A stretch of DNA of 64,000 bases from Marsupella aquatica (taxonomy: Eukaryota; Plantae; Marchantiophyta), in NCBI GenBank assembly GCA_973895155.1, contig OZ316891.1, positions 17,916,095 through 17,980,094 of the forward strand. The letters run 5' to 3'. Shown piece by piece: positions 421 to 36,959 of this stretch. A model generated the notes under the pieces. The model saw nothing but the letters and a program-made list of their open reading frames with translations, did no database searches and was not told where the DNA came from. Both the position numbers and the translations under genes were made by a program. Position 1 is the first letter of the stretch, and every line of letters begins with the position of its first letter.

Positions 421-1342
421 TTAGGGAGGAGAGGAGACACTCACAAAGTGGGCCTTGAGACCGGGGAGACCGCCTTGACCCAGCTTGTGGACTGGATTGG
501 GGGTGGCTTTCACTCGCTTGGCTGCATCCATGAAACGTTTGGGTGGTCTTCCTTCTTCGTCGACCACCTTTTGCACATCAGCTACCTTCTGCTCGAGTCC
601 CTTCAGGTCATGGTCAAGGGGGAGCTTCCCGGTCTCCTTTGCTTTCAGGGATCGAGCTAGTGTATCCTTCCATTGTTCCAACTCGCGAGCTGCTTTGATT
701 TGCACCTCAATCTTGTAAAATGCATTCCAGATGTCCTCAGTGAATTGGAGGGGCCTGCGCAAATTCCTGTACGATATCAAGTCTCTCAGGTGGGCTCTAA
801 TCTTCATCCTATCATGGTATCTCATTTGAGACATGGAATTAGAAATCTTGTCTGCCAGCCATTGCTCATCTATGTCAGCTCCATTACGAAATGCATCCTT
901 GATCTGATTCATCACTCTCTTTCGCTCTGCCTTCTCAACCTTTCCCCATTGCATGCCTCGTGAGAAATTGCTTGTGATGATCTGTTTGATGGTGCTCTTA
1001 GCCCCTGCATAGGCTAGCTCAGTTGGAGTCCCAGTTGTCTCCAAGGCAATGAATGGAAGCTTTTTCCTTGCATCCTTTTTGACGTTGCTCATCTCGTTGT
1101 TTTCGAATTGCATCCCTCTCCTCTCTTCTCTTCTGTTTTTCTGTGGCTTGAGGAGAGGCAACTCCCGACTTAGCCCTCTCCTCCCTCTTCCTTCTTTTCT
1201 CTCTAGCCTTCTCCTCAGCTGCGACCCTCTCTTCCTCGTCTCTAGTAGCTTGCCCTGCCACAATTCCTGTTTGCAAAACCTGGCCTAAAATGGCACTCAA
1301 GGAGGCAAGCCCTGCTGGAGTATTCAAATTTACTTCACCCAA
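421..1342 (-). pseudogene. TnpA/Ptta-like CACTA accessory protein exon (frameshifted; probably continues toward the window start)
   Basis: RPLQFTEDIWNAFY...VHKLGQGGLPGLKAHF resembles the Transposase_24 P..W..F...H..G..G pattern and is followed by a GTGAGT donor. The N-terminal part is in another frame (ORF 1019-1342). Confidence 0.55.
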
Positions 1343-2029
1343 CTGTGCAGCACTGAGATGTTGGGCTACTAAGTCGCTCCATGCATATGTTGCTTCTCCT
1401 GATTTGCCCCATTGCCACTACCACCAGCACCATGTCCTCCACTCCCACCGTGCTCTCCACTCCCACCGGTAGCCATAGCTCAATCCCTCTCAGGTCTCTC
1501 TCAATCTTCTCCCCGCGGCCCCTTCTCCTCTCGCTCTCCCGATCAAACAAGGAATGAGCTTGATGCGAGCTCCCGCCGACACTTACGCATTTCAAAAAAA
1601 CCTCTTTGCGATCACATTCGCATCACAAACTGCCACCCTATTACCTTCACAAATGGTCTCGCAACTTGCGATACTTTTGTGAAGAACATACCCTCGCTAA
1701 TCCATCGCAACCCGCAGAAACGCCCAAAAATTGTTCTCGGCCTCTGTATTTGCGAAGATGTTGCGAACCCGGGAGGTTCGCAAAATGCATCTCTAATTTG
1801 TGAAGCAATTTGTGAGGCAGGTGATCTCGGTTTAGGGTGGGAAACTATCCCAGGTGTTTAAACGGCTTTACAAGGGTATGGCCTATTTAAACCCTTTTAA
1901 CTCAACATGGATTTGTGAATGGCCAATTAGTTTGAAGAAGAGGATTTTAGGTTGTAGTTGGGCTTTGTGTTTTTGTTTTTGAATCTTAATTGGGTTCTAA
2001 TTTAACAAAGGGTTTGAGTTTTAATTTGG

Positions 2030-2790: not shown

Positions 2791-3225
2791 TTTCTAATTG
2801 AGGGTATGCTTTCTTTATTTCATTAACATGAAGGGGTGGAACACTCTAGGAGTTACAGGGCACTTCCCCATCGTTTTGAGAGTTTTGGCTAATGCATATG
2901 CATTGCAAGAGCTTGGGCATCTGAAAGGTAAAGCTTGTTTTCCTGGCATTTTTTATTTGTACTGTAACTTGAGGGTCTATCATCCCTTTCTATAGTTTAC
3001 CATAAGTCATTGCTTAATTCATTGTATATTTGCAGATTTCTCCCTCCTACTTCCAGATTGGGTTCATCAAGTTTGGACCAAAAGACCTATAGGCATTGCT
3101 GAGCCCGGGTCTCATAAAGGTATTTTTTCCTTTCATTTCAGTTTAATATGTCTACTTAGGGATTACAAATGATCGTTTTAGCTATTTGTTTACTAACTCG
3201 CTATTCCAAATCTTCCACTTGCCAG

Positions 3226-4378
3226 ATGTCTTCATCCTCTACAACTTCCACCACATCAGACTCCTCCTCTGATGAGGACATAGATCCTCCTCCTCAGCCT
3301 GAAACAGCCGCTCGTCGACCTAGTGGTCTACCACGCCAACTTTGCAGTTGTAAAAAATGTGTGGGGATGGTTGTCCAGAAGTCATATGTATGTGCAGACC
3401 ATATTTCTCGATATGGACAACATCGAGGTCTTACACCCGGAGCCTCTTCATCCCATACGGTGAGTTGTAAACTTACTATGGTTTATTTTTTATTCAATAA
3501 ATATTGCTAGCATGATAAGTTGGGGAAGTTTACAATCACTTTGTTGGATTTGTTCCCTATAGGTATCTAATAGGCCTACACCCACGGCACCAGCACCCTA
3601 TGTTCCCTCACAAGGAGTTCTAGATGCTATAGGCTCGGCCCTTTCACAAGCTTTCCGTTTGGTTGCAGCAGAGCGAAGTGGTGTTGGGACAGTTCAGGGT
3701 GATGGTATTGTTACACGAGGGAAAAAACGGTCTAAAAGGCAACCTAGAGGGGAAGTTGATCAGTACACCTATAGGGTTGATGGTAGGTGGGGACCTTGTA
3801 CATTCACAGGGAAATGTGTTCCTATCATAAAGGATTGGAATCCTGATTGCCTTGGTTTGCCATGTGATATAACCTATGGTGAGGAAATAGAGGTTTGGGG
3901 AAGACATTGGATTGTCAAAAGTTCTACACTAGGGGAGAGACATGGGTATGGAATTTTTTCTTGCCAGGACATCATTGTGGATGATATGGGTGGAAAAGGG
4001 CACTCTCAAGATGGACCAACGTTGTTCCCATATGGTGGACCCATTTACAAGCGAAGACATTGGAATATGCTCCTTGTACAACACCCTGAGTGGAAGACTT
4101 ATGCATTGGACATGGATACTTTTGATGGTTGCACTAGGAAGTATAGTGAACAACGTATAATTGATGGTGATCCCATCCGTAGTGGAAATATAGCCGGTTT
4201 CATTAACAGTACTATGGGGACCCAGCCTAAGCGTAGGAAAAACTGTGAATGGGTTTTTGTTGATGGTCCCCCTCCAGCATCATATGGGCAGAGATATCAT
4301 CATGACCATTGTCTAGTTGTAGCTACCAGGACCATCAAGGCCGGAGAGGAGTTGTTTACACATTATGAGTGGGATTAG
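3226..4378 (+). CDS. Zn-finger (transposase-associated-like) + SET-domain lysine methyltransferase; exons 3226-3459 and 3563-4378, ~349 aa
   Basis: Exon 1 encodes CSCKKC...CADHISRYG. The GTGAGT donor at 3460 and the AG acceptor at 3561-3562 are in phase 0. SET motifs: HGYGIF, IDG...GNIAGFINST, VATRTIKAGEELFTHY. Confidence 0.8.
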
Positions 4379-4574
4379 GCTTATTTTAGGGATATGTATT
4401 ATTTATATGTTCCTTCATGCTTTGTGAACATATATTTTGTAAGTTAGGGTTTACACCCTAAACCTATGATGTTCTTTCACATTGTATGTTAATAATATGT
4501 GTCGATATTGTTTTTGTCTTATGAGGGATTTAATTTGGAGTTTGATTGTGAATGCTTTATTGTATTGTCCATAG

Positions 4575-7500
4575 AATGTGCGACCTAGCCAAGATATGTT
4601 GCCAAGGAGGTTGAGAGCTACATATGAAGAAATGGGCATGCCACAAGACGAAGTCACATCATCAACAGATTCTTCATCCAATGACAGTGACAATGAGCAT
4701 TTGGACGAAGGGGCACCTAGGACAGATTTTGAGGTCATGCAGGACCAGGAGACAGCCATGGATGACTTCATGACAGATTGGTTTGGTGTGGACGCCCGTG
4801 TGGACGTTGATGGTGAAGGACGTGGACCACCCAATGAAGGAGCTCCTCCACCAAATGCTGCACATGACCCTCGACCTCAACATACACCAGAAGGTCAACA
4901 ACAATGGGAAGAAGCGGAGGCACATGCTAGAACACCTATTTATGGGGGTGCTCGTTTGAATAGACTCTCTGCCATCTTGGCATTGATGAATCTTCAGGCA
5001 AAACACAAGGCAAGCAATGCCCTTCTATCGGATTTGTTTGCAATTTGCCATGACCTCATGTTACCTAGTGACAATGTATTTCCAGGAACTTGGAAGGAGG
5101 CAAAGAGAGTTCTATCATCCATTGGTATGGAATATCATATCATTCATGCTTGTATGAATGACTGCATCCTATATCATGAGACCAATGCCAACATAACTGA
5201 GTGTCCAATTTGTCATGAGCCTCGATATGACAACAACATGTTGACGGAAAAGGTGCCCAGGAAAGCTGTCCGTTGGTTTCCCATTATTCCTCGATTGTTG
5301 CATATGTATCGATGTTCTGACTTGGCAGAATTGATGGTATGGCATAAGACACATCGATCAGAGGCCGGTGTCATGTGGTTGCCAGTTGACTCCCCTGCTC
5401 ACAAGCATGTGGAGGCACAATGACCAGAGTTTGCACATGACCCTCGTCATGTGAGGTTGGATTGGCATCGGATGGGGTCAGTCCACACTCCCTTGGTGGG
5501 AAAGGACGCCCAACATCAGTTTGGCCGGTGGTTGTTATGAATTACAATCTTCCACCATGGTTGTCCATGAAAAAGGGCTTCTTATTGCTTCATTGATTAT
5601 CCCAGGTCCATCTAAGGTAAAAAACATGGACACCTATTTGGCACTATTGGTTGGGGAACTCCAAAAATTATGGGACGGTGTGTGGGCCTATGATGGTCGA
5701 AAAACTACAGGGGGATTACCACGTGTCTTCAAATTGAAGGGAATCAATATGTGGACCATGCATGACTATCCTAGTAAGGGGTATGGATTGGTGTTTTTTT
5801 ATGTAATAGAGAGTTTGTTTTAAAAGAAGTCCCTCATATTTATGTATGTACATGAACTTTTTACATCCTTTGACTCTAATTGAGAAAGTTATTTTGGTTT
5901 GGGTTTGTTGCAGGGTTTGGGTTTGTTTCAGGGTTACAAACTCAAGGGTATAAGGCATGCTCCACTTGTGGTCCAAGCCTTGAAGATATGGCCAAGTACT
6001 CAAGATGGCTTCGCAAGATAATCTACCTTGGGCATACCAAGTTTCTTCCACTTGGACATGAGATGAGGTCTGACCCCCTTCTATTTTCAGACTTTGACAT
6101 GATCAATGGTGATGAGCGTGACATACCTAAGCGTACATCCTTTGCACATTGGAAATCCATAGCTGATAGGGTGGCAGACCCTAACGACCCCATGACATTT
6201 GATGGAAGTGGGTTGACGAGGTGGAGTATACTAGCAACATTGCCGTATTGGCCAGAGTTGAAGATTCATCATTTGTTAGACCCCATGCATATAGAGGGAA
6301 ACGTTGGGAAGGCTTTGATCAAGCATTTTTATGGAGAAAAGGACCATAATTTTAGGGAGGCATGCCAGGGTCTAGAACGACATCCAGATGTATGGATAAC
6401 AGTTGATGCATCAACAGGGATGGAACACCGTCCTTCAGCTCCTTGGGTTTTGAGTGTTGGTGAAAGAAGAGAGTTTCGACAACGCATAGGTCAGATGCGG
6501 TTTCCTACAGGCTATGGTGCCAATCTCCGGAAAGCTTTTGGGATGGAGGACAATCATAAGTGGCCAATGTATTTGAAGACACATGACTATCACCGTTTAC
6601 TACAACATATACTTCCTGTGGCAATCATAGGCTTGGGCAGTGAAGAAATGCAAGACGCCCTATGGTCATTGGGCACTTTGTTGAGATGGATATGCTCAAA
6701 GGAAATATATGAAGAAGAGATCCCACGGATGGAGGTATTGGCAGCAGAGGTAGTGTGCAAGTTAGAGAAGGCCCTCCCTCCTTCCTTCTTTGATTGTCAA
6801 GTACATTTACTTGTTCATCTTGTGAGGGAGGTTGCCATTGCTGGTCCAGTGCATTGTTGTTGGATGTATTGGTTGCAAGGTATATGGCTGTGTTAAAGGC
6901 TTATGTACGGAATCGTGCACGAGTGGAGGGGAGCATGGCAACAGGATACTTGGCAGCTGAGAGTATGTTCTATTGCAGCAACATCTTAGCCACCATTGAT
7001 CCTAGTTGTCCACACAGTTGGATGGAAGAGAGAGAAATGGAGGAGGATCGTTTAACAGGAGCCAAAAAAACACGCTTACTAACCGGAGTGGAGTTGACAC
7101 AGATGACTACTTTCATGTTGAGTAATAGTACTGTGATGGAAGAATGGAGAGAGTTTTATGAGGATGCAAAGAGGGAGAGTCGTCGTCCAAGGATTTTTCC
7201 AAAGTTCCTTGAGTATATGAGGGAGAAAGTACTTCAGTTGGATGCTATGGTGGCCCAAGGTGAGAGTGTATCACATTTTCCAGATATGACTCCTGAGGTT
7301 CGAACAATTGTTCATGGCCCTTTGAGACTTGTTCAGACCAGAACAACAATGTGGACACAAGGGAGACATTTCAGGATTTCTGACCTTGATGAGAAGAGGG
7401 GTAGAACTTTTGACTGTGGAGTTCAAGGGCAGTTCATGCAGGATTCACAAAGTAGCGGCCATGACACCAATGTCATCCGAGATGTGGTGCCTCACTATGG

Positions 7501-7861
7501 GAAGATAGAGGAGATCTTGATTGTATCCTATGATGCGGATACAAAATTTGAAGAGTATGTCTTCAAGTGTAAGTGGTTCAAAATTCACTTGGTTGGTGAG
7601 AATCGCACAGTACTTCTTGATGATTGTGGGTTTACTCGACTGAAGACATCGGCAACTAGCTTTCAACCATCTCATTGGCAAACATCTGAACCGTTTACAT
7701 TCCCAAGTCACCTTGAGCAGTGTTTCTATATTCCGTACCCACCAGACCCAGAGGAGTGGTCAGTTGTTATACCGTATGTGCCACAATCTCGTTCCATTAT
7801 CTCAGAAAAACCTGAAGTTATTATTGTGTCAAATGGAGGAGAGGATGAGGACCAAGTTTGA
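4575..7861 (+). pseudogene. CACTA TnpD/tnp2 transposase (Transposase_21, DUF4218 and DUF4216-like regions), disrupted
   Basis: IHACMNDCILY...CPICHEPRY, LASDG, YNLPPW, IIPGP, HDYP, LDPMHIEGN, LKTHDYH, PPSFFD..VHL.VHL, YVRNRARVEGSMA. TGA replaces Trp at 5421, with frameshifts at ~5460, ~5590 and ~6875. Intron 5774-5913. Confidence 0.92.
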
Positions 7862-7918: not shown

Positions 7919-8060
7919 TGTTGTAACTCATACTTGAGTTAAGTCTACCTTTGGGATAACTACCTATGTAACTACCCTAACTACTTAGGCCGTAGCCACA
8001 TGTACATATTCTACCAAGAGTAAAGATGGAACCAACTCTTTGTCTCATTATCCTACAACA
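7919..8060 (+). repeat. 5' LTR (142 bp)
   Basis: TGTTGTAACTC...CCTACAACA; matches 22551-22693 except for one substitution and one indel near the 3' end. Confidence 0.95.
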
Positions 8061-8074
8061 CGTTATCAGCACGA
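8061..8074 (+). promoter_or_regulatory. Primer-binding site complementary to the anticodon arm of tRNA-Ile (half-tRNA primer)
   Basis: CGTTATCAGCACGA lies directly after the LTR. Its reverse complement TCGTGCTGATAACG matches the tRNA-Ile(AAT) anticodon arm, with wobble A read as G/I. Confidence 0.7.
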
Positions 8075-10765
8075 CTCTACGAGGCTGAGCGGAGCTAGGC
8101 CATGAAATTTTTTTAAGAAGAAGGGCGAATTGAACAACGAAAAGAAGAAGACATTGATAATCTCATAAGGATCAAAGCAGGATTAAGAAAGACCGAGTAA
8201 GGCAGATCCGGGAAAGAGGACCGAAGGCAACCATTCGACAACTGTGAGCACTTTCAGAAATAAAATTTTTAACAAGGACATTGACGAATCAATGAAAGAA
8301 GCGCAACATCGTTCGAAGACGATAAGGACAACCTCAGACTGGCTGAATTTTTATTTTTTTAGGCCATGACTGATTCACTCTAAGACCTGAAGAGGCCGAG
8401 CCATGACGGAGCTTTGTTAGAGGGGCAGAGAGAGGTATGAACGAATTTGGCGATGTATCGCTGGAAAAAGCTGAATGAACGAGAGAGAGATGGCGGAATT
8501 AAGGATTGTGATGTGATGGATAAAGAATTGCGTCATAGCGTGCACAAAATTTGCGGATGAGAGAGTCCTATAGTGATGCGAGGTGAGGTCATGTCAATCA
8601 AGGAAAAAGGGATTGTTATCTCTGAAGGCGGAAGCGGCTAGCTAAAGAAGCCGAAGAGTTTTCATCAGATTCTACTAATTCCCTATCTCCACATCGGCAT
8701 TCTTTTCATGTGCATCCATGTGCACAATGTGGGCCTGGCGATGGTGAACTGAACCTTCAAAGTTTTTCCCGCGTTCCGAGGATTATGAACCGAATGGATT
8801 GTTTTCACAAACGCAAGTGAACGCCCTGCTTGATCTGACCTAAAGGAATGACAAAATCATACGCACTGGCTGAGATTCAAAGCGTATTCCAATGAATTTC
8901 GAAGAAGGAAGAACGACAAAGGCGCTTTGATGAAAGAGAATTCTCCTTTTGAAATTGACCAGACGACCCAATCTTGAACAAGGGCCCTCACACAGAGCAA
9001 GACTTACCGACCGGGCCACCGACTACCTTGAAGTCCACCTGATTCAGAGACACACAAAACTAACTACAGAGAAGAAGGATCGGACCCAGATACAATTTGG
9101 CACACAATGATAAGGACAGGGGAGAAGGAGGCCCGAGTCATTCGAGTACGATACCGCATCCAGAACGATACAAGTGCTGTATCGATTTTGGCAATAAGGA
9201 TAACAAGGCAGTGACATCGACGGCATTTAGCATGAAATATCGAGGAGGCCCCAGAGATAAGAACCAGAATGTCACATCATAGGTAGAGAAGACGGCACAA
9301 TTCACGGGACACAAACAGACCACCACAGAGCGAAATAGTGATGCGATGTGGAGGCGTTGAAATTCGGAAATGAATATGAAGGAATGCAGCAAGAAGTGAC
9401 CAGAGGGAAGGAATGAAGGAAGGAACCATGCCACAATAAGCGAGTGAAGCAGAAGATTCAGAGGATTTCCCCTTGTCGAAGGAAGGATTGGGACCAATAA
9501 CAGAAGATAAGAGAGAGCGCAAACCGGAGAATTATACTGTCGACAACCATGACCAGGCGCAGATGGAGTGAAGGACGATAGATAGAGCAAAGGACCACAA
9601 AGAAAGAAGGCATACTTGACGTTTAGAGAGCACGAAGGGAATGCCTACAGCTGACGAACAAATCTCGCAACAAAGAACTTCAAAACTTTGAGAAAACATC
9701 GAGAACATACCGCTAAGTGCAAACCCTCCTTAATTGCAAAATCCGTCAAATAGATTTGCGTATACAAAGAACAATGTGCACTGAACCAGGGAAACACACA
9801 TACTAAGAACGGGGACAAAATGGCATTAAAATGAAAGATATCTATTGGGAATATTACCATATAAGAATTGCCATTCACAAATTAAGGGGGAGAATTGTTT
9901 TTCCCAACGTGCCTATTGCATTTAAAAGCTGCCTATGGCACTTAAAAGTTAAGCTCCGTGCCTACTACACATGGAAGCAAATGAGTGCCTACTGCACATG
10001 GAAGTAAATGACAAATTGAGGGGGAGACATCAAGTAAGACTTGACATCAAGCAATGTAACCCATGGGATGTGCCTATTGCACAAGTGCCTATTGCACAAG
10101 TGCCTTTCGCACCAACGAATACCTAAAAATGGAACTCTATTCCATGCATATGGCAAATCATGAAATCTAAGGAATTTTTATAAATGATTGAACATGGTGT
10201 TAACACAATCACTTACCAATACTTGATGAGGTATACTGGATATTAAAGTACCATATGATAATATGAGGTACAGTACTAGGTCATAAGGTACCATAAGGTG
10301 AGACATGGCATGGTAAGGCACCATAAGAGATGGTGCGCCATACCCCAATATGATAACCCTATGTTGTGGATATGGTACGTGATGTGGTGCAAATAGGTTA
10401 TACCCACACCAAATCTAGGGTTGGACACCCAATCCAATTCCAAGGCCATGGATTACACCATCTCATCTTCATTTTGTACTAATACTTTGCTTTGTCATGA
10501 ACACGATTTCGGACCGACCGAGAAGTGTGTCGGAGTTCTCGTTTAGCCCGATCCCGTTTTTTTTCTAAGGCAATGCAATGACCGATAAAACTGGCAAAAA
10601 CTCTCCGAAACGCCACTTTCCTCCATTGCATCGCCGCGGGAATGTAGGGAGCGATACGTGCATCGGGTTTTACATTCCGTCAGTGAAAAAGTCCGAACTG
10701 CGAGTAACTTGGTTCGAACCGCGTAATCCAGGAATGACCACGCACTAACCCAGGTAAAAGGGGAA

Positions 10766-10819
10766 CTTAACCATGGTTAAGGGGAAATTAACCATGGTTT
10801 AGAGCGTCTCCTATATAAA
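10766..10819 (+). promoter_or_regulatory. Putative cargo promoter: duplicated TTAACCATGGTT palindrome followed by a TATA box
   Basis: CTTAACCATGGTTAAG at 10766-10781, a second near-copy at 10788-10801, and TATATAAA at 10812-10819. Confidence 0.45.
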
Positions 10820-11414
10820 GAGGAGCGGGCTGCCCATAAAACGTTTTCTTTCGCCAGAGCAAATATCTCCTGACTGAGAGCGAATACCAAACTCCCATCA
10901 AGTCTTACATTCCTCCCAAGCGATTCGACTCTTTCTACCGAAAACCCGATAAATTTATCGGAACAGCCATTCCTGTTCAAGTTCTCCATGTAAGACTAAC
11001 TAGTCATTTAGTGTAAAATGTCCAGATCCGAGCGGACTGCGATAAATTTATCGCATTTTGCATTCCTCTGTTGCAATCATTTGATCCAGTGTGTTTAGAG
11101 AGGTGTTGCCTTCATTCCGTTAAATTTATCGGAGTCTCCATTCCTTTCATGGAAAGAGGAGTAATTGAGAATTCGATAAATTTATCGGAGTTGTCATTTT
11201 TGTGAAAGATTGAATTCAGGGCTTAGGTGTTTGAGGAAGTCATATTTTCAATTCGAATGCGGAGTGCGATAAACTTATCGCATCCTCCTGTGAGAATCAT
11301 TTTCCTTTGTTTTGTTTGGAGACTCATCTTCATCTCTGATGTTGCAGTGTTGCCGGGTTTAGGAGGCACAACGGAAGGTCGATTGCACTCCGTGGACAAC
11401 AGGTATTGTGACAA

Positions 11415-11744
11415 ATGGCTGTCTTCCTTGAAAATCGTGTCAAACGTGCACGCCGGTTGTACAAGAGACTCGTGCGACTCAAAGTTCTCCCCATCGGTAT
11501 AGGAGCATTGTGGATGGGTGGTACTGATCCTGGAGATAGGCAGAATCCTCTCCGCATTGAATTCTGCGGAATGAATGATGCAGGAGTTCCAATTTGTTCG
11601 AGGTTGATGTTAATGGCGTGTTTACATTCTTTGGAGTTTTCTTGTAACTATTGTTGTCGTCGTCTTGATAACAAGTACCACAAACAGGCTCACTTCTGTT
11701 GTAAGATTTGGAACGAAGACCCTTGGGTGAACCTTTCACGATGA
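11415..11744 (+). CDS. Transposon cargo ORF, basic and Cys/His-rich, function unknown
   Basis: ATG-initiated 109-aa ORF (RARRLYKRLVRL; CNYCC...H...HFCC). Confidence 0.4.
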   Translation: MAVFLENRVKRARRLYKRLVRLKVLPIGIGALWMGGTDPGDRQNPLRIEFCGMNDAGVPICSRLMLMACLHSLEFSCNYCCRRLDNKYHKQAHFCCKIWNEDPWVNLSR

Positions 11745-11932
11745 GTGTTTCGACCTTTTCATTGAGGCGCATCTTGGAAGGACATATTTAAATAAACAAG
11801 TCCTACCCTTGCGCAGCGAATATAATACGTCATGAGTCCTAATCGTTAAACTGTCGTGCAGGGTTGGTACTGTGTTTGGTTACACCTGGTGATTGAAGGT
11901 ATTTTTATTGGTGGTTTTGGTAGCTCTGCTTC

Positions 11933-12481
11933 ATGGCTGCATCGGAGAATCTAATCGTTGCAAAGATGGGATCCGTTTTAGCCCACGAGCGTAGGAAATA
12001 TATTCGAGGAAAAGTGCCCGGTGTGGAATGCGGAAGTTTTTTGAATGGACTTCCCGATGAACTCGTTGAATCTCACATTTGGCCCCTCCTAGCATTGTCT
12101 TGCACACAAGATGAAAACCTTGGCCTTGACCTAAAACTTCTACCAGAAGAACGACTAACTCGAATGAGAACAATCATTTGTCTTGGAGCCACCTCGAAGA
12201 AATGGAACCATCTTGTTGTTGGTACACGATTTTGGGCGCTATTGAAATATGCAGTCCGTGAGATCAATGACATAAACAAAATGCTCGCAAGCATTCCTAA
12301 TGCCGTCCTTCTCTCAAACCTACATATTGCTAGGGTCTTCCGAGAGGAAACTCATTTCCTCCCTCCCATAGATATGCTTGGGTGCTTCTCGTATGACCGA
12401 TTAGATGTGTTTCTTAGAGTTTGGGTGAATCTTGGAGAAAGCGGGAAGCGGACAATTCTTGCATGGCATGGACGAGTCTGA
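11933..12481 (+). CDS. Transposon cargo protein with an F-box-like motif
   Basis: FLNGLPDELVESHIWPLL...ICLGATSKKWNHLV...FW follows the F-box pattern LP.E....I...L....L..V.K.W..L. Confidence 0.6.
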   Translation: MAASENLIVAKMGSVLAHERRKYIRGKVPGVECGSFLNGLPDELVESHIWPLLALSCTQDENLGLDLKLLPEERLTRMRTIICLGATSKKWNHLVVGTRFWALLKYAVREINDINKMLASIPNAVLLSNLHIARVFREETHFLPPIDMLGCFSYDRLDVFLRVWVNLGESGKRTILAWHGRV

Positions 12482-12773
12482 GTGGATGAGGCATTGCAGC
12501 GAACATCCGATAAATTTATCGCACTCCTCATTCCTCTAGTCGATTTTGGGTGCTTGTAAAGAAACACTTTGAATATAATTGACTCTGCCTCCCCTGACTT
12601 CGGGTTGTGTGGTCCAGAGTGTATTTTTTTGCGCCTCTTCGGACGATTAGCTGACAAGTGCATTGGCTTCACAGCCCGTTATACAAGGTACTGTAAAGTT
12701 GGATGAAACTTGTAGAATTGTAATTAGTATGTTCTCCAAAATTTATTCCTGATTTCTATTCGGTGATCAGGCC

Positions 12774-13250
12774 ATGCTCGAGCGACGCATTTTTGTACCC
12801 TTCCCGGATCCTCCAGAATGGGGGAATGGAGCCATGCTGGACCAGCTAAGGAGGCTGGATGAGTCACTAATTTTAAAGATATGTAGGCTGGTAGTAAAAC
12901 CGTTTTACCATAACGCATTTCACTTCTACGTAGATCAGGTAGGGGGAGAAATTTATATTCGGTGGGATAGATATGTTGGATTTTCTAAAAGAGTTATCCT
13001 ACTCTTTCTGAAAATTGGTGCAGTAAGACGTTTTATACTCCACTGCTGTCATGTTGTGAAGGGCAATCCTGCTTATGAGCCAGAATTCTATGCCGACAAC
13101 AGACGTAGAGCATTCGATGAGATTCAGGATGTGATTGACGAGCTAGACAATCCTCTTGCCACCGAGTTTTTTATTGACACTGGTGGGAAACTATATTCAT
13201 ACAAGATTCGTCAACTCCCCCCCCGGCCAGCCGGTCCGTGGGCTCTTTAA
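12774..13250 (+). CDS. Transposon cargo ORF, function unknown (158 aa)
   Basis: ATG in GCCATG context just after a CAG acceptor; globular-looking composition. Confidence 0.45.
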   Translation: MLERRIFVPFPDPPEWGNGAMLDQLRRLDESLILKICRLVVKPFYHNAFHFYVDQVGGEIYIRWDRYVGFSKRVILLFLKIGAVRRFILHCCHVVKGNPAYEPEFYADNRRRAFDEIQDVIDELDNPLATEFFIDTGGKLYSYKIRQLPPRPAGPWAL

Positions 13251-13711
13251 CTTGATCTATGTAAGTTGCCTGTGGACGAACGTCCTTGCCAATGGTGAGA
13301 TCTGTCCATGTTGCACAAATGCTTGTTGTGACATTCCGTCACGCCGATATTCAGTAGCAATAGTGAATCCTGAGACTGGTGAAGTTGATTTCCATTGGCT
13401 GTGGGCTTATGATCATCGCGTCACTCATATTCCCCAATGGCCCAAGAAGCGGATCGAACGCTTTGCTCTGGCGAGGTTCAACTATGATTAGGGTTTAGGT
13501 TTAGGGGTTAAGGTTTTGGATTTAGGGTTCCGTAGCTGATTCTTCGACCTGTACACTCGGCCGTCAATTTAAAGAAGGCTCACTTTTGCGATAATTTTAT
13601 CGGTCTCTTTGTCCTTGTGTGATGAGATGTCGTGTCCACATGTGCTGTGAGATTGGCGGCGATAATTTTATCGCTCTTTGCATTGGAATTTGTTTATTTG
13701 CAGACTTTTCC

Positions 13712-16700
13712 ATGGCTGCTAGTGGAAAGAGTGGATCTGCTGAGGCAGAAAGTCTCATGACAAGCCTCACCAATGCAATTTGGACAAGTGAAGACATTTG
13801 TGAAGGGATCAAGTGTATCAAGAAGTCATGGTACTTCCGTGACGCCAGATTACAGTCCACGGGTTTCGAAGACTGTGTTACCCCAATCCTTTGGGTCCAG
13901 TTGCAAAAATCGGCGAAGGTTAATGTTTCGTATGGCCCTGTCATTGTTGTTGCCGTCGTCGAGTTCATGGTTGGCCACGGGGAGGGAAAAGTGTTGACAG
14001 AGGGCCTTAGTTTCTTGACAATGTGTGGGCGCAAGGGTTTCACATCTCTCATTGTTACTCTCGATAACTTTGATGAGAAATCGATGGACAGTTATCCAGA
14101 AGATCCCCTTGTTGCTGATGTTCGGGCAGCAAGAGAGATGAATGTTATGGGTTCGGCTTGGATCGGCCAGTATGTGCAAGATTGTGATGCCATCATGCTT
14201 CCAAGGGTGAACGCAGAGTACAAGAGACTTGTGGGTGAAGAGTTCAAACCTGTCCGCAAAATTGTTTTCAAGAAACCAGGTTCAAGTGGAAGCGGTGGTT
14301 CTAATGCCGATAAAATATCGGGGCGGAAAGAACCATTGCAATCCTCTACACATATTGACGTGGACGAACCTACAACTTCTGGTCGGGTTTCGGGAAGTGG
14401 AAAAGGGAAAGGGAGAGGTAGCGGCAGGGGAGATGTCGCGGGAACCTCTGACGGTGGGAAGAAGAGCCAGGAAACTGGCGGTAGTGGGAGAGGCCGGGGC
14501 AACCATTGAGGACCATCCATTAAACCAAGCGAAAGTAAAGGATCCGAGGGATCCGGGCCATCTGGTTCTGGACTTAGCACAAAGAGGAAGAGGACTGGTT
14601 GGACTGAGACGGTGGCTGCAGAAGTAGATAGAGCTCCATCAATTCCATCAGTTCCAGTCGCGGTTCCTACGGCGCCATTGGTAAGTACTACGTCGTTGTA
14701 CTGTTTAACAAATACGAAATCCGATAAAAATCTCGCTATTTATTTCCTGAATTGCGGATTGTGGAGTTATGTTGAACAAATGCGAACTCCGATAAAAATC
14801 TCGCAGTTTCTTTCCTTAATTGAATTTGCAACGCTTTTGTAGGCTGATCAGGAGGAGGAGACGGCTCTTTCGATGTATGAGACGGACGCGATCAAGGCAG
14901 AGCTCAGTCTTCTGATGCAACAAAGGGTGCAAAGGACAACTGTGCTTCTGCATGTCGACAATCTCATATTTGATGAGGAGGGGGATTTGACAACTTTGAT
15001 TAGACCAGTGGATAGATTGCATGTGGAAAATATCAAGATACTTCTCATGAAAAACCCCACCAACTTCAATGCCCCGTTCGTGCTGTGTGTGGATCCGAAG
15101 GATTGTCCCACAACCGCAGATTGGGACATCCTGAAGTCAAGGGTATGGAAGTATAGAATTATTGGAGGGAATCATGGTGCTCGGGCAAAGTCCGAGTTGT
15201 TTAAAATGTACAGGAAGCAAATATATGGTGAGCTGGAAGCTTGGGTTTACGCTGGGCTTACGAGATCCGAGGTCCGAAAGTTAGGCTTCCAGCATAACTA
15301 TGACCAGGAGTATCGGAAGAACATGACTAAAATTGACCAAGTTCGGGCTTGTCACAATATTTTCCTTGAAATGGGTGTGGGCTCGACTAAAGATGTCCGC
15401 GAAGCATGTTGTCAAGAATGCATGATGGAGTACACGCCAGGAGTTCGTGACTCCATGGCCAAACATGATCCGGCTTTCCAAATTGCTTTCCGAACAGGTG
15501 AAATTTGGGATCTTCAGGAGCAGATTTTCCAGATGTGGGAGAAAGGTATTGTCTTAGGACAACCCAAAAAAATTGTGGCAACGACGAACACAAAGGGAAA
15601 GGTGAAACCTTTGACGGTAAGGGAGATTAAAATGAATAAACTTGCTGGTGACCTCAACTTAAATTCATTTCGAGGTCTCCAAGGACTATCAAATAAGGAG
15701 CATGTCAAGCGCCTCTTGAATAGGGTTATCGGGAAGGTGATCACTTTGGATCAAATGCACAAGGAAGGTGAGAAGTTGAAAAAGCTTGCCAAGGTGAAGA
15801 AACTATTTTTGCAGATATCTGGTCAGCCAGATTGGGCAACATGCAGAGAAATGTTTCCCAACGAAACAGATGTCTCGGTCCTTGGCATATGGGCGGAGAA
15901 ATTGAGTGACGCGGTAAGCATTCCTCTCACAGCATGCTCTATCGCGAGATTTTTATCGGCTTTAGCATTCCTTTGTTGGTTTCTAAGCGATTCCATTTAT
16001 TGGCTAGCGTGCTCCATCGCGAGATTTTTATCGGCCTTAGCATTCATCTCACGCTATTCTAATTGTAGATGTGTCTGACATTCTTACAGCTGAAGATTAA
16101 TTCAAAAAGGAAAAGCAAAGTGGTTCCGGCTGTCACTTATAATTCTGCGGGGGAGGTTATTGTTCCCTCAGCTGAAATCCCTTATGTGTTTAAGAATTTT
16201 GTGCTTGCTGCAATCGATAAGTACAATCGGCTGAGGTCCTTAGGCGAGGGCACAGCAGAAGCGTTTGAACAAACATGGAAAAATGCAGACGGGGATTCTT
16301 TTCCCTACTATCTCCATGTTGGTGATGTTCGAATTTTGGATTCTTTTGTTCAGCCAAGGGCTTACACCCTTGCGGTTGCGGATATTCCGTATGGTTTTAA
16401 TGCTCCTGGTTCGGAGTTTGATGAAGTGGCCTTCACAGAAAAGGACATTTTAGACATGTTGACAAGTTTCTCAAAGATGACGACCGCTAAGCAGTGGAGG
16501 TTTGTTGTGATCCATTCACTACAACAAACGCATATGGTGATGTCTGCACTGGAGAGTGTATGCAACTGTGGGATCGAGGCTGGAATCTGGGAGAAGACTA
16601 ACATTCATGAGCGTCCCGCTGGAGCTCGATTGGCGTGGGGTTTTGAGAACTGGTCGATAGGTTTCTATAGCGAGGAAGGCATTCGGAACATGAACATGTA

Positions 16701-17202
16701 CAATTTCCAACCGGATGAGTCTCGCGTCAATATCATCAAGGTTCCATGTGTAACCAAGAAGTCCGTTGATCCGTTGGGATTTGTTGTGAACCCATATCAG
16801 AAGCCTGTTGGTTTAGGGGCTTGGTTTGTTTCCCATTTCTCTGAGAAAGAGGATTGGGTTATTGATCTTTGTTGTGGAACCGGATCGACATTAGCTGCTA
16901 CGCTCCTCAATTCTCGCTAGGGTTGTGCTGTTGATAAGAGTTCTACGCAGATTGGTTTTGTAAAATCCCGGATCATGATTCTGGAGTCAAATTGGAATTT
17001 ATATGAAGAATCCCAGATTGAAGGGCACGGCGTTGAAGGTCATGAGATTCAACCACCAATTGCAGGCCAATTGGGTGTACTCGGGACATCGACTTACGTA
17101 GTTGAGGTCGTGAAGGAGACCAAAGAGGAACAAGAAGAAACTGAGGAAGAGCCTCCCAGAACACCAAATGAGGATGATCTCAATGACATGTTATTAGATT
17201 AG
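13712..17202 (+). pseudogene. ParB/Srx-like domain + beta-class N6-adenine/N4-cytosine DNA methyltransferase fusion (~1050 aa; exons 13712-14680, 14843-15913, 16090-17202) with two nonsense codons
   Basis: Both introns are GTAAG...AG in phase 0. ParB-like RPVD..HV..I...PFVLCV...YRIIGGNHGARA at ~15000-15190. MTase motif IV DIPY (16381), NPYQKP, then motif I DLCCGTGST (16864) give the beta order. In-frame TGA at 14507 and TAG at 16918, with the reading frame continuing after each. Confidence 0.85.
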
Positions 17203-17530
17203 TTGCGTGTGCTTGTTAGGATAATGTCAATCACCAATGAAGTTGTCGATAAATTTATCGACTTCTGTATTCCATGAGGAAGAACCTTTGTCACATTTAT
17301 TAATGCAATAAATTTATCGGACTTTGCATATATCGGACTGTCGCGGTGTTCCTGCTGGGGGAATGGAGTTGTCGATAATCTTATCGGACAGCATTGTATT
17401 CTCTAACTGGTTTGTCATTGCAATTATTTAAAAAAAAAGATATCATTATAGCTTCGGAGTACATAGTCCCAGAACGATAACCACTGTACATATTCATGGG
17501 AACGATAATCATTATAACTTAAACCTGAAA

Positions 17531-20500
17531 CTAGCTTCGACTATCAACGACTACAGTCTCCATTGCATTTTGAATGATTCGTCTTGTTTGTATAGGGAGA
17601 GTACTATTTGCCAATAACGCAAAGTTATACGCATAAACGGCAGTTTCTGATAGGGACAATTCATCCTCCAGTACTTTGCTAGACGAAGCCTCTTTCTCCG
17701 GATAATATCTGCCTTCAATTGCAGACTCTTCCTCCGAATCCATTGCATACCAAGTGATTTTAATCCGCTCCGGGATGTCGTTAATTCTTGTGAGAATCTC
17801 AGTCACTTTTGCCATCCAGAATGGTCTTCCCTTGGGATCCTGATGGGCTGCTACACATATCATTGCAAATTTAGTATTCACCTCTAGATCCTTGAAGTCT
17901 CCAATTTCCGTGACTTTTCTTCGACTTCCGGAATACATGACTGTCCTCACACCCGCTACTTTATCAACCAAGCTAGGTTCCATTGCTGCTTCCGTAGGAT
18001 TACTCGGAAGTTCTCTCTGTACGTTTACCTTGGGCCAACTCCAATCAAAACTCCATTGTGCAGGTTTCAGGTGGTGCTGAATCACTTCTTTTTGTTTGTC
18101 AAAAAAACGACCCCACCATAGACGATCTGCGTCGTCAAAGTAATTGAATCCATCTTCAATTGCTCTTCGATATTTTTGAAGAGTTGACAAATAACTTTGA
18201 GCCGCCGGCTCATCTTGTTCCTCAGCATCATTCTCTTGCTCTTCATTGTCTCCTGTCGCTCCCGTGGCCGACTTCAATGCCATTTGTGGTGCGACCCACA
18301 TTCCAGATGATGGAATGTACCAAAAAAAATCCACCGTCTCCCCCCAATCGATTGTCGTTGAAAGATGTTTGGCATGGAATACGGACCGAGCACTTCCATC
18401 TTCGAGTACTCTAGTAATCCGAAATTGTTTTTGAGCACTTATGCCGTGGAGAGTACGTAGAACCTGACCATCCATATCCTTGTCATTTGCTTGATCCTTG
18501 TCTGACACAAATTTCTTGAAATCGGTAACCTCGTCGACGAAAAATATCTTTGCCGTAGGATTGTAGGATTCCTCTATGATTGCTGAAAGAGTGTCCAACC
18601 GGAAAGCTTTCCGCTTGTTCAATTTTGAAGAAAACTTGCTAAACATTTGATCAATTTGATCATGGGTGTGCCCCACCAGTAGGAAACCAACCTTTATTTT
18701 CTGGAAAACACCTATCTCCACCAACATATTCAAATATGCCATAAGATATTTATTCTTGTTTTCCCGAGCTGTGTTATCAAGCTGGAGGTAAAGCACTGGA
18801 GGGAGCAGACCTTCCCAGGTATTCAGAATATGCTGGATAACGTGGATGGTCAGGTTGCTATCATTGTGAATATTTGGATAGTTCAAAAAAACATTTGAAC
18901 TTAATTGTTTGTTGAAGATCAAACAACCCACTACGTGTACGGGGATGAAATACTTTTCATCCATATTCTTCGGACACCGAATGAAATGAGGTAACTCTGT
19001 CTTCTTTTGATCCATTCCATCAATACAGATGCCCAAATATTTCTCCGGACTCTTGTAACATTTGCTCCGGTGCTTTGCTAACTTCTCCCTCTCGACTGCT
19101 TGTGCCTTCCGATGCTCGTTTAGCAATGTTGAGAATTTTCCTACAACAATAAAAAAATTTAGGACAAAACATGATAACCGCAATGTTGAACCCTGACAGC
19201 GATAAATTTATCGGGTTCAGTATTCAAACACGAGACCGTAATGATAAACCCTGACAACGATAAATTTATCGGGTTCAGTATTCAAACACAAGACCGTAAT
19301 GAAAAACTGTGACAGCGATAAATTTATCAGGTTCAGTATTCAAACTGTTCAAACGATATATTCACTCACATGGCCAAAGAAGAAGCACATGAATACTCAA
19401 CCCGATAAAATTATCGGGAGTAGCACACAGGTTTAGAAATTTACTCTTTTCTGCTTCGAGTGTTGCCTTGTCACGGAGTGCTTTGAATTCAGTACACGGG
19501 GCGCAGGTGGAGAAACGGCTCCTTTTGGGGATGCGCACGCGAGGAAACTCCTTGTTCCAAATGCGAACAAACCACGAATATGTCATGCCTTGTTCTTGGC
19601 GCATTAGAGTTTCGGACTGGAAGGCATCAAAAACTTCTGTTTTTGTCCAATTGTCAGGTAAATGAAAGATATCCTTGTTGGGGAGACTCTCGACATTTGT
19701 GGAAAAAAAATCATCCAACCATTGGACGAGACCAAGATGTGCGGGTGATTTTTCTCGACAAACTGTACCGATCTATATCCGACAAAACATGTTCTGCGAG
19801 ATTTTTTGGAGACGATTATTTCCCAGTGAAAATAATTTCTTAAAACCACTTCGACAAAAGGATCTACCGCTAACTGAGTAACCACTTGCACCAGCATGCC
19901 CACCCTTCACACATCCTCTTAGAAGGACGTTCTTCTCTGGGTAGGATAGCCCATAGTAATAAGTGCGTTGTTTCGTCACGGCTAGCAGACCCAAATTCCG
20001 CAGACAGTAATTATCACAACACGAATACTTATGAATTTCTCTCATTTTGTTTCTATTCAATTTGTCATTTATCACATTGTCTTTCCTAGTAATTCGGTCC
20101 CTATCTTTTTTACTAGGCTCATTTGACTTCTCTACAACCTGAAATCCGTTCATAACATTGGCATTTTCGGGTCCTTCAGGTGCCTCGTGAATAGATGCAT
20201 CACTCTCTGCTGAGCTACCATCCTCTATAGATCTCCTTGACGCATTTAGAGGGGCACTGAATAGACGACTATAGCTATTCTCTTCGACAGCTCCTTCTAA
20301 ACATTCAGACACAACTTGTGCTATTATATCGGATTCTCTATCTCCTTCCTCATCTTTGTCCTCCGATGCACTCGACTCATCTGAAAACACAATTGGACTC
20401 CGTGGCTCTCTATACATAACCCGAACGCCACTAAGACCTCTCCTTGATACTTGGAGCCTGGAACCAATGACAGTCCGCCCTTGAGAACTTGGAGATTCTG

Positions 20501-21122
20501 GATTCGCACGTGCAGTCCCAACGACTCCGCGAGCTGCTGGAAAATTGAGCACTTGTTCACCACGATTCCCACGGACCATTCGAGAAAGGGCCGAGTCTGG
20601 ACTTCGCAGTCCGATTCCCTCGCTTGCTCGCACATCCAGTCCAGGCAATGCAAAGACCGATCGCCGTATCGGTCTTTGTATTTCTGTGTCCCGATCCTCA
20701 CCCGGAGACTGAAAGATCCGTCGTTGAACTTGTGTTGAATGTGGCAACTTGAATGCCGACTGCGATACGCGTATCGGTCGCCGGATACCCTCTCCATAAC
20801 CCGGGATGGATGGCCTGAAGCGACGTCTCGGACCTAAACCTGGGATTGAAAGTTTCTCATTTCTTGGCGATGGAACGCTCAAGAGACGATGCTTCTCAGG
20901 TTTACTAGGCGACACATAGTAAGCACTGGGCTCAGGACCAGAACTTGCATCAGAATCTGAGTCAGAGATTTCGGGCACTATTTGCTGTGAGAGAGGTAGA
21001 GCTTTAAGTATGCGACTTGGCAAACAGCGAGCGACAAGATTAGGAGAGGATTCAACTGAACTGGAAGGTGAATCTGTGTCTGATTGAGACATGGCTATCC
21101 GAGACACTATGGGGCTTTGCAT
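17531..21122 (-). pseudogene. Sola-like (DUF7869-type) DDD transposase; exons ~21122-19445 and 19140-17531; one nonsense codon
   Basis: IDGMDQ...LQLDNTARENKN...FLLVGHTHDQIDQMFS catalytic motifs and Cys clusters SCCDNYCL and FSTCAPC. Intron 19444-19141 restores the frame (EK-R-KFS). In-frame TAG at 19773-19775. Confidence 0.85.
19177..19345. repeat. ~58-bp tandem repeat (3 units) in the transposase intron, each carrying the 14-bp palindrome
   Basis: CCCTGACAGCGATAAATTTATCGGGTTCAGTATTCAAACACGAGACCGTAATG-like unit; palindromes at 19200, 19258 and 19316. Confidence 0.9.
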
Positions 21123-22550
21123 TCCTCCCACAATCAGGGAAAACGAAAGGCTCAACGGACAGAATGTTGCTCCAAGAACACAACTCCCAAAACTCTACTC
21201 TCGATAATGATGCCAAAAACTTATCGGCGGTGGCCCTTTTATAGTGTCTGTTGAGGGGTTGGCCCACGTGTCCACTTTTGATTGGCTGTCACCCTAAACG
21301 ACAAAATAGCAGAAAAGGGTATATTTCTTGGATTTCCAATTTCATTCTCACACGTGCATCGTGGCAAAATTATATAGTTTTGAAATTGAAGCGATAAATT
21401 TATCTGATGTTGGTATTGCAAAAGTGGTTCCTTCATATGGAAGTTGCAATTTTGAAATTGAAGCGATAAATTTATCTGATGTTGGTATTGCAAAGAGTTT
21501 TCTTCATATGGATAGGAATTTTGAAATTTAATCGATGAACCGAAGGATCTTAGTATTGTCGACTAGTATTTTTGTCGCCCGTAGTTTTTGCGATAATTTT
21601 ATCGGACTGCGCATTGCTGTTGAAAGAATGGCATGTTGACTATGGTCACTTGCGGAGGTAACTGGTCAATTGCGGAGGTAACTGCAAGGTAAATTTGATG
21701 AACCGTGCAGTAATTCTTATCGACTGTGATGTAAAATATTTTTGGTAAATATCCAAAAACTGAGAAACCTGAGATTGGGTCGGAGTTTTCGTGGCTCAAA
21801 TCCGGAGTTCGATACAGTTATCGCACTTGGCTCGAAACATGGATATGGATTTATAGATAAGACCTTTCATATATCTTCGGAGAGCGTGAATATGAGGTCG
21901 AGGAGAAAGTTTTTCGGATCTAATTGTTCCTTGATAATATGAATGTTTGTTAGCATGAATTTCATTGGTTTTGATCATTATTAAATTTGTTGTTTCAATC
22001 CGAACTCCGATACGAATTACATTATTTCCCCAAAAACGCATTTTTGATGAAAAAAACTGCCAATTTCGCGAGATTCGGCGGAAAATAAAAATACACTTCT
22101 CGTTTAGAGGAAATAGTTCTCGTTCGGTCCGAAATTGTGTTCATGGCATGTAATCGGTGACCATCAAGGAATCTCCATTTCCAGATTGGAAGATCTTCAA
22201 CAAGCCTATAGTGCTAACAAGCACCTTAAGAGACTTTGTAGAAATTACACATACACTATATGCTTAAACCCAATTATGTTACACCCATGGGGATGGTAAT
22301 ACTCTTTCCTCCCACAAAGAAAGTAGGGGAGGTTTTAATGAGGTTACATCCCCGACTTACACTTTACCATGCAACATGAATTATAAGACATCTATTAGGA
22401 GAAGCTTGACATTCATTTATAGTAGACTTGAGATGGCTACACCATTTATAAAATAGACTAGACATAAACAAAACCTATTGCATACCACTGAATATACCCA
22501 AAGTAGACTCTTGATTGTAACATTTCAACCCCAATGTTACAAAGGGGGAG

Positions 22551-22693
22551 TGTTGTAACTCATACTTGAGTTAAGTCTACCTTTGGGATAACTACCTATG
22601 TAACTACCCTAACTACTTAGGCCGTAGCCACATGTACATATTCTACCAAGAGTAAAGATGGAACCAACTCTTTGTCTCGTTTATCCTACAACA
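22551..22693 (+). repeat. 3' LTR (143 bp)
   Basis: Preceded by the PPT and followed by TSD CTATC. Confidence 0.95.
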
Positions 22694-23399
22694 CTATCAT
22701 GGTTTTATTTATATTTACCTATTTATTTTCTTCTTTTGTCTTACAAACACTTGGACTTTGAAATTTCATTTTACTGCTATACATGCAACCCTAGCCACTA
22801 GAAAAGTTCTCCTCATGCATGCCACCTTTTTTAAATCCCTAGCTTATAACCTAAACACATGCATTCTCCATCTTCTAAAGTTTTCTCTCAAAAATTTCCA
22901 TTCTGAAAACTTTGCAAACAACTCTCTTTGTGAAACATTTTTTGAACCAGACAGGAATGAATTTTTGAACCTCTTGTGAATCCAATTCCATCGGTACTTG
23001 TGATACAAATACGTTCTCAAACTTGCGACCAAATTGGCTTCGGTACTTTGCAACCCACCGTTCTTCACAACACTTTCCGAACATAATAGGTTCACAAACC
23101 ATTTGTGATAGTATTAGTCTCGCTAAATTATGAACCAAAATGTATCCGAATACGGTCGCGATGGTCGCGGACTCACAAAGTTGTTGCGAGATAACTAGTA
23201 TCTAAACGTGTTGCGAAGTCAATAACATCAAAACTTAATTGCGATGTATGTAGCTTCGCAACGTGAATGTGCGATGGTAAGAACATGGGATATTGTGATG
23301 CGTGTTACATCACAAAATATCTGAAGGTTCTAACATCGCAAGGCCTTTTCGACTTCAAAAAACACCTTCGCAAAAGGGGCCGATATGTAGTAGTGTTTA

Positions 23400-36400: not shown

Positions 36401-36959
36401 AAAATGGATTGGGCTGTAGCTGCTGCATTATGTGATGTGAGGAAAACCTTGAGCATAGTGAAGCAAGGGATGAAGATCGTGAAAAAACTTATCCTATGGG
36501 GGAAAGAAAGGTACGTCGAGATAAGATTTCTGATGAAGTTCGAAAACAGGTGGAACACTTTTGGGAAACCCACACTTAGATTTCTCCATGTAAGAACAAT
36601 GAAGCCAGATTGCGACTAGGGCGGAAAGTGTATGAAACACATCAAGTGCACTGGCTGGAGGATACACAGGTGAGAAATTCTCCATGATTGATTTTGCCAC
36701 TTTTGCTTTTAACTCATAATACAATCTGCAGATGTTGAGAAGTAGTTTTGCTTCATGTGTGCTTTAGCCATTGTGCTCTGCTGTAACCACCTAGTTTCTT
36801 CTTTAAGGTAGGATCTGAATAATTTTGTGAGACCTGACGTCCTATATAGCCTAGCAGGAAGGACTCTGTTCCAGGAAAATTCCTTCAGGACCGACTATCT
36901 AGGCCTTCAGGAAGCACTGTTGAATCCTTGTCAAGTGAAGTCTGGCATGAGAAACAAGT

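Follow-up and report, generated by a model that had tools for sequence, protein, structure and literature searches.

Why does the transposase gene of a DNA transposon carry an exon for a SET domain, and can one gene make two proteins with it? The locus lies in a stretch of 64,000 nucleotides (nt) from Marsupella aquatica (contig OZ316891.1, positions 17,916,095 to 17,980,094 of the forward strand), which we call the window and number from its first letter. Judged by its sequence, the element is, with reasonable probability, a CACTA (En/Spm) transposon of bryophyte type, present in high copy number and decayed in this copy, that has a SET exon in its transposase gene. Depending on the splice acceptor chosen, a single transcription unit likely yields two proteins: a predicted zinc-finger-SET protein and a predicted zinc-finger transposase (TnpD). 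The predicted layout is real, conserved, and testable. The gene has the following parts (a slash marks a splice junction).

2870-2926, plus strand: predicted non-coding exon with an approximate start, ending at the donor AAG/GTAAAG, which is kept in three of four aligned loci
3036-3119, plus strand: predicted non-coding exon of 84 nt, with no ATG and a 1-nt indel relative to its relatives, with which its acceptor and donor align
3226-3459, plus strand: first coding exon (zinc-finger exon), with an ATG, a Ser/acidic stretch, a CxCxxC-x13-H motif, and a phase-0 donor
3563-4378, plus strand: SET exon, 271 codons and the stop TAG (4376-4378), with the phase-0 acceptor TAG/GTA
3944-3952, 4031-4039, 4205, and 4349-4366, plus strand: the SET motifs GxG, YxG, Asn, and ELxxxY
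4379-4574, plus strand: AT-rich spacer of 196 nt, with the predicted 3′ end of the SET transcript and the TnpD acceptor region
4575-5773, plus strand: TnpD exon, with seven conserved codons before an ATG at 4596, ASDG (5465) and HDYP (5761) and, in this copy, a stop (5421-5423) and two frameshifts (near 5458 and 5588)
5914-7861, plus strand: last TnpD exon, with CxxC (5958), MHIE (6285), DUF4218, DUF4216, and a frameshift near 6872

The zinc-finger exon opens with its ATG directly after a CAG acceptor, runs for 234 nt (78 codons), and closes at the donor ACG/GTGAGT (3459/3460). The original prediction had this exon end in phase 0 and the acceptors at 3563 (SET) and 4575 (TnpD, TAG/AAT) both fall in phase 0, and all of this reads directly in the sequence. 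In the peat-moss-type loci the donor follows codon 78 in 17 of 17 (as GTAA), 14 of 16 have the SET acceptor in phase, and 25 of 27 retain the TnpD acceptor. The intron and spacer sequences, and the intron lengths, differ between the window and the peat-moss-type family despite the matching splice positions; the spacer between SET and TnpD is 136-147 nt in relatives and different in sequence. Upstream, contigs of the subfamily are similar up to ~2930 and again from ~3040, and the exon at 3036-3119 is 76-78% identical in nucleotides to five related loci. The zinc-finger-like motif (C40, C42, C45, and H59) is invariant in seven of seven aligned sequences, and the exon has an omega (dN/dS) of 0.26, as the median over loci. 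Grass TnpD starts with a comparable CxCxxC..H motif, and the only motif of that kind here lies in the exon upstream of both SET and TnpD. The first methionine of the window SET exon is at codon 142, past motif I, so SET depends on the upstream ATG at 3226.

For TnpD, the original prediction held that the exon has no start codon at its beginning. This has to be corrected: there is an in-frame ATG at codon 8 (4596 in the window) in all 27 related loci that reach that point. Ahead of it, seven codons spell NVRPSQD in the window, compared with NIRPSED in the commonest peat-moss-type form; the eight nucleotide differences include an AGC/TCT serine. Random placement of eight changes gives P 0.007 for at least five identical residues and 1e-5 for the BLOSUM score, in one comparison and under a model without splice constraint near the acceptor. 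The codons are conserved as protein, so their translation is probable, and it would call for a phase-0 donor upstream. A rough weight-matrix scan found no donor common to both families between the zinc-finger donor and the TnpD acceptor. We consider that TnpD is probably read from an upstream exon, its own ATG notwithstanding, and hold with good confidence that the zinc-finger donor would be spliced alternatively to the SET or the TnpD acceptor.

A search with the SET exon gave 40 protein clusters among 503 candidates, with named members from Sphagnum species and the liverwort Calypogeia fissa. Public gene models, which are gene predictions and not transcripts, join the zinc finger to SET in Sphagnum (343 amino acids, in a cluster of 360 members) and in C. 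fissa (351 amino acids). A profile search of representatives gave 111 clusters of divergent relatives; among the 20 looked up, six representatives are named Riccia sorocarpa and two C. fissa. Several divergent models, including those of Riccia, have CxCxxC..H followed by SET, or SET followed by Transposase_21. Two C. fissa models (P0158 and P0159) belong to the SET family as divergent members that start differently, and for each of them there is another, near-identical model; they are possibly on other elements or domesticated.

A metagenome scan yielded 40 loci, whose translations match Sphagnum-named proteins. The order ORF2 (minus strand), zinc finger, SET, TnpD is kept in the relatives, and all 27 loci that hold the SET 3′ end and at least ~150 nt more run on into TnpD; of the others, 10 end too early and three (L023, L033, and L034) break off inside SET. 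Contigs from public runs contain hundreds to thousands of matching pieces that belong to several subfamilies. The original prediction had allowed that the SET exon might be absent from other copies, and it is present in the contigs, the 40 loci, and the clusters.

The SET exon matches Pfam SET (PF00856, E 5e-7) and exceeds the cut-off of 22.4 bits with a score of 30.5. The match occurs in 27 of 28 aligned members, and no other domain was found in the exon. A model of the SET core built from 74 sequences has a predicted local distance difference test score (pLDDT) of 91.4; a shallower alignment of 28 sequences gave 39.6, and that model was not used. Structural comparison by VIA-align places SET/PR domains at the top, led by the yeast COMPASS SET domain (VIA Z 12.4, root-mean-square deviation [rmsd] 2.5, 124 residues aligned). 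Sequence searches of the PDB with the single protein or a shallow profile gave no match; the best profile match among solved structures is LegAS4 of Legionella (E 1e-4). We take the motifs to be GxG, YxG, the motif III Asn, and ELxxxY with the catalytic Tyr. They are well conserved (G128 in 65/70, G130 in 69/71, G159 in 71/73, N215 in 66/74, E263 in 64/66, and Y268 in 60/64 sequences; counting Tyr or Phe for the tyrosines, Y157 in 73/73 and Y180 in 74/74). A preprint (bioRxiv 10.64898/2026.05.29.728679) names six residues in the active site of LegAS4, and by alignment reading five of them have counterparts: Y157, T179, Y180, N215, and Y268. Catalytic activity is plausible, and on sequence and model we lean toward a predicted lysine methyltransferase.

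A recent viral donor of SET was considered and rejected. Giant-virus SET models match the fold (E down to 5e-7), with only 7-22% identity, and no relative of the exon was found in viral contigs, so such a donor is without support.

Between the families (window versus locus L009), omega is 0.20 for the SET core (confidence interval 0.12-0.30) and 0.18 for the SET domain, with an overall interval of 0.10-0.30. The TnpD parts have omega 0.11-0.13, or 0.16-0.27 with a transition bias of 2.5. The synonymous divergence (dS) is ~1-1.5, and medians over loci agree with the SET and TnpD values. By these estimates SET is under purifying selection between families. As a separate matter, the exon DNA of L009 and L016 is 74-76% identical to that of the window, and for one liverwort host and one moss host this divergence (dS included) would be low. 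With such hosts, it would suggest horizontal transfer between the lineages.

The fragments of TnpD match Pfam Transposase_21, DUF4218, and DUF4216 above cut-off, as expected of a TnpD-type transposase. We take ASDG, HDYP, CxxC, and MHIE to be its DDE catalytic acids and CxxC. The window copy carries a single stop at 5421-5423 together with 1-nt frameshifts at three places (near 5458, 5588, and 6872), and the lesions in the TnpD exon are absent from other copies. Contigs of four of four public runs read G at 5423 at full depth, that is, no stop, so the stop is private to the window copy. Because of the TnpD stop and frameshifts, and because ORF2 is also frameshifted, this copy is dead. Two GT..AG introns (~150 nt) of the peat-moss-type TnpD (L009 ~2625-2775 and ~3643-3795) are cleanly absent from the window's family (near 6507 and 7370), which fits the intron loss reported as common in CACTA transposases (PMC4158355).

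From these observations we propose the following mechanism. A promoter upstream of the non-coding exons would drive one pre-mRNA. Joined to the near acceptor, the zinc-finger donor would give a zinc-finger-SET protein of 349 amino acids; joined to the far acceptor, it would give a zinc-finger-TnpD transposase of ~1,130 amino acids. The SET isoform may be a trans-acting accessory factor, in the role that TnpA has in maize. Its N-terminus, shared with the transposase, would bring it to the chromatin of the element or to the transposase complex, and there it may methylate a histone lysine at the family's own copies and change the silencing of the family. We regard this reading as rather probable on the exon order, the splice sites and phases and their conservation, the SET fold, and the selection between families; the splices and the catalysis are inferred. 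The target and direction of SET action (a histone lysine, the silencing of the family) are put forward tentatively.

Several observations weigh against this reading, and we give them with the alternatives on which they bear; the likelihoods assigned to the alternatives overlap in part with that of the favoured reading. Concerning the enzyme, the histidine of the NH motif is replaced (Ser follows Asn in 68 of 74 sequences), and the window SET protein ends three residues after Y268, without a post-SET lid or C-terminal segment. The sixth active-site residue of LegAS4 (Y231) lies beyond this end. The protein thus departs from a canonical eukaryotic histone lysine methyltransferase, which has the NH(S) histidine and a post-SET or C-terminal lid. 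Both isoforms could be made with SET as a pseudo-enzyme. It would then act as a reader or decoy, binding histone tails, S-adenosylmethionine, or host silencing factors and leaving them unmethylated. The replaced histidine, the lack of a segment after motif IV, and the modest Pfam score fit this idea. We find it somewhat unlikely, since conservation of GxG, YxG, Asn, and the motif IV Tyr extends through 74 sequences with identity as low as ~26%, and since LegAS4, the nearest solved sequence, also lacks the histidine (it reads YINFS) yet is reported to methylate H3K14 in the same preprint.

The structural matches to COMPASS, PRC2, SET7/9, and SET8 (Z 11.8-12.4, rmsd 2.4-2.9, 124-135 residues) tie within 1 Z and so pick no substrate class. 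An active enzyme might methylate a non-histone substrate (TnpD, ORF2, or a host protein) and in this way regulate transposition. Neither fold nor sequence gives the substrate class, and the protein lacks pre-SET and post-SET modules as well as any known reader domain. The nearest structure and sequence matches are mostly histone methyltransferases, though these dominate the library, and we judge a non-histone substrate unlikely.

Concerning the splice to TnpD, the zinc-finger exon matches Pfam Transpos_assoc at E 0.011 and 16.3 bits, below the cut-off of 27.7, and the profile match to the grass TnpD start is weak (E 0.006, probability 6%). A public gene model that joins the zinc finger directly to TnpD was not seen in two weak searches (0 of 9 and 0 of 8 matches). 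The exact joints 3459 to 3563 and 3459 to 4575 do not occur among the matches listed (15 of 44 and 15 of 17, from six runs), in contigs that are DNA-like, span the introns, and are mute on expression; the same listed matches give no sign of a SET-less DNA derivative. All loci were retrieved through SET, so SET-less families could not appear.

In a rival history, the SET exon took over the first exon for good. The zinc-finger-SET protein would then be the sole zinc-finger product, and TnpD, without a zinc finger, would start from its own ATG at 4596 on a separate or bicistronic RNA. The presence of this ATG in 27 of 27 loci and the missing gene model favour such a start, and a GTAAGT at 4439 in the spacer could splice the SET 3′ untranslated region onto TnpD. 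However, the GTAAGT is not conserved in relatives, the TnpD acceptor has the same place and phase in both families, and the seven codons before the ATG are kept as amino acids through mostly synonymous change, the AGC/TCT serine included. We consider this explanation quite improbable.

Concerning selection, the dN/dS of SET that the original prediction had singled out gives a divided answer. The constraint between families (omega ~0.2) does not extend to recent peat-moss-type copies, where SET is neutral (~1.1; 1.08 for singleton and 1.10 for shared changes) and TnpD has omega 0.63 and 0.45, respectively. These values come from 14 de-duplicated copies (15 before one near-duplicate was dropped), among which double sampling of one genomic copy may account for some of the "shared" changes. 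We infer that constraint between families with neutrality among recent copies is what would be expected of a trans-acting product in mostly dead copies; a relaxed need for SET in the peat-moss-type family also fits.

The original prediction also pointed to the intact SET frame beside a broken TnpD. The contrast is true of the window copy but specific to it. Four lesions in ~3,150 nt of TnpD lead to ~1.0 expected in the 816-nt SET exon, with P(0) ~0.35, so the intact frame is compatible with chance, and we reject the contrast as evidence of selection and give it no weight. The wider claim, that one gene yields either a zinc-finger-SET protein or a zinc-finger transposase, is supported in part, by the conserved splice positions and phases, the codons before the TnpD ATG, the lack of a usable ATG in the SET exon of this copy, and the upstream place of the CxCxxC..H motif.

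That the SET exon is passive cargo from a host gene, carried without benefit, is highly improbable and already largely refuted by the between-family omega (~0.2 at dS ~1): the neutrality among recent peat-moss-type copies would fit it, but SET is kept beside TnpD in lineages down to ~30% identity, no host lysine methyltransferase occurs among the named sequence matches, and in copies close to the window's seven of the 12 best-supported variants are synonymous and four of the other five revert to the residue common in relatives.

The favoured reading, one gene with two alternative terminal parts, sits in an element with these further features.

136-263, no strand: TTGCGA/TCGCAA cluster of subterminal type, eight copies
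421-1417, minus strand: ORF2 (open reading frame 2), the second, divergent gene of the element (frames 1019-1417 and 421-1284), with at least one frameshift in the window copy
1606-1778, no strand: second TTGCGA/TCGCAA cluster, seven copies
7919-22693, no strand: insertion bounded by long terminal repeats (LTRs 7919-8060 and 22551-22693), with target duplication CTATC, that splits the 3′ arm
23023-23395, minus strand: right subterminal repeats and right terminal inverted repeat, assigned by sequence and by the match to locus L020

The right terminus at 23395 reads CACTACTACA inward on the minus strand, and the same terminus occurs in L020. The left end lies beyond the window start; in five related loci it reads CACTACAACA, ~1.5 kb ahead of ORF2. 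The shared start stands beside four different flanks in these loci, which demonstrates that the related family was mobile in the past. Members of the CACTA/EnSpm superfamily make 3-bp target-site duplications; none of the related loci spans both ends of the element. A CACTA-type terminus is thus present at the right end in the window and at the left end in the five loci. The subterminal repeats are also of CACTA/EnSpm type: the first 30 kb contain 30 TTGCGA/TCGCAA matches, and 22 of them sit in the clusters at 136-263, 1606-1778, and 23023-23368. Beyond the LTR-bounded insertion the 3′ arm picks up again with these repeats and then the terminus.

ORF2 is bordered on both sides by subterminal-type repeats. 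It shares ~60% amino acid identity with nine related loci, with omega 0.20. No Pfam match was found below E 0.07, and the best PDB match has E 0.028. We regard ORF2 as a candidate TnpA-equivalent.

Degenerate telomere-like G-rich repeats lie between ORF2 and the first non-coding exon (1850-2830), in the likely promoter region. TTTAGGG occurs nine times in these 980 nt, compared with seven times in the last 55.9 kb of the window and zero to one time in three related loci. Repeats of this type may act as telo-boxes.

The LTRs of the 7919-22693 insertion are short (~142 nt) and nearly identical, with a 5-bp target duplication; the interior has no long open reading frame and looks decayed. Nested in it is a DNA transposon of 11.7 kb (10493-22148) with 39-nt terminal inverted repeats. 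It encodes a DUF7869 transposase-like frame (17531-19207, minus strand, E 1.5e-49) and an N6/N4 DNA-methylase-like frame (16069-16920, plus strand, E 5e-4, below cut-off), which is preceded by a 411-codon frame of no family (14843-16078). It is the second transposon in the window with a possible epigenetic enzyme and recalls the methylase of red-algal PAG2 (below). Frames at 35579-40793 resemble another DNA transposon, with no Pfam match. Direct and inverted repeats, each ~20 nt long, form an array that interrupts them (37049-38390), and similar repeats occur at 43000-43400. Host genes in the window are an intronless MAPEG-family gene (48303-48776, minus strand) and an RST-domain, Gln-rich gene (56157-59048, minus strand), which we take to be TAF4-like.

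In maize En/Spm and Arabidopsis EN/SPM3 and EN/SPM7, TnpA and TnpD come from one gene by alternative splicing, and an anti-silencing action is reported for the TnpA of Spm3 (PMC13547354; bioRxiv 10.64898/2026.08.24.746577). Our element resembles them in its CACTA terminus, its Transposase_21/DUF4218/DUF4216 transposase, and a predicted accessory protein from the transposase transcription unit. It differs in that this accessory product is a SET protein, unlike the DNA-binding TnpA. In addition, the exon of this product comes before the TnpD body, the coding zinc-finger exon would be common to both proteins, and there is a further divergent gene on the other strand (ORF2).

SET domains are also described in other DNA transposons. 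In red-algal Plavaka, of the EnSpm/CACTA superfamily, the accessory gene PAG2 carries a SET domain (bioRxiv 10.1101/2025.02.11.637652). The likeness is one of superfamily and domain content: PAG2 is a separate gene in a three-gene cassette, with an N6-adenine methylase fused to SET, whereas here SET forms one exon of a Transposase_21 gene that has no methylase domain. SET is the only domain found in the exon and in the 27 of 28 aligned members, which sets the element apart from the PAG cassette. SET genes occur in HarbingerS and in MuDR families of the oomycete Phytophthora, where they are proposed to counter silencing (cited in PMC12730594), and SET captures occur in Helitrons (cited in PMC12730594 and in the Bostrychia preprint). 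These too are DNA transposons with a SET methyltransferase gene, but of other superfamilies and hosts, with SET as an accessory gene and, in the parts of the sources at hand, no mention of a first exon shared with the transposase. The element falls outside HarbingerS, as its transposase is Transposase_21 and its terminus CACTA.

The protein shares the minimal SET core fold with LegAS4/RomA, SET7/9, and SET8 (Z 11.3-11.8, rmsd 2.4-2.9), in addition to the giant-virus SET proteins, and the His-less motif III with LegAS4. In contrast to these minimal enzymes, to which it is only 17-28% identical, it has no ankyrin or post-SET part, and it has an extra N-terminal subdomain and two long insertions. 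At the level of listings and abstracts, we found no land-plant CACTA element described as having a SET exon in its transposase gene; one could be hidden in subscription journals, Repbase reports, or bioRxiv supplements. DNA transposons with SET cargo have been published before, and the shared-first-exon layout is without match in the literature found.

The window adds a second family, so the splice model can be tested by conservation, and the layout makes for direct tests of two splice junctions and one small enzyme. The boldest scenario, doubtful as it is, would be that an old clade of bryophyte CACTA elements (in peat mosses and in leafy and thalloid liverworts) turned a histone lysine methyltransferase, minimal yet active, into an alternative terminal exon of its transposase gene. 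Through the zinc finger that both products share, the enzyme would be targeted to the element's own chromatin, and the choice of splice would decide between writing a mark and excision. Transposon chromatin marks differ between mosses and liverworts, and the anti-silencing factors of plant transposons described in the sources consulted, VANC and TnpA, are DNA-binding regulators. If the scenario is true, land plants would have transposons that encode their own histone writer, a counter-measure of a different type from VANC and TnpA.

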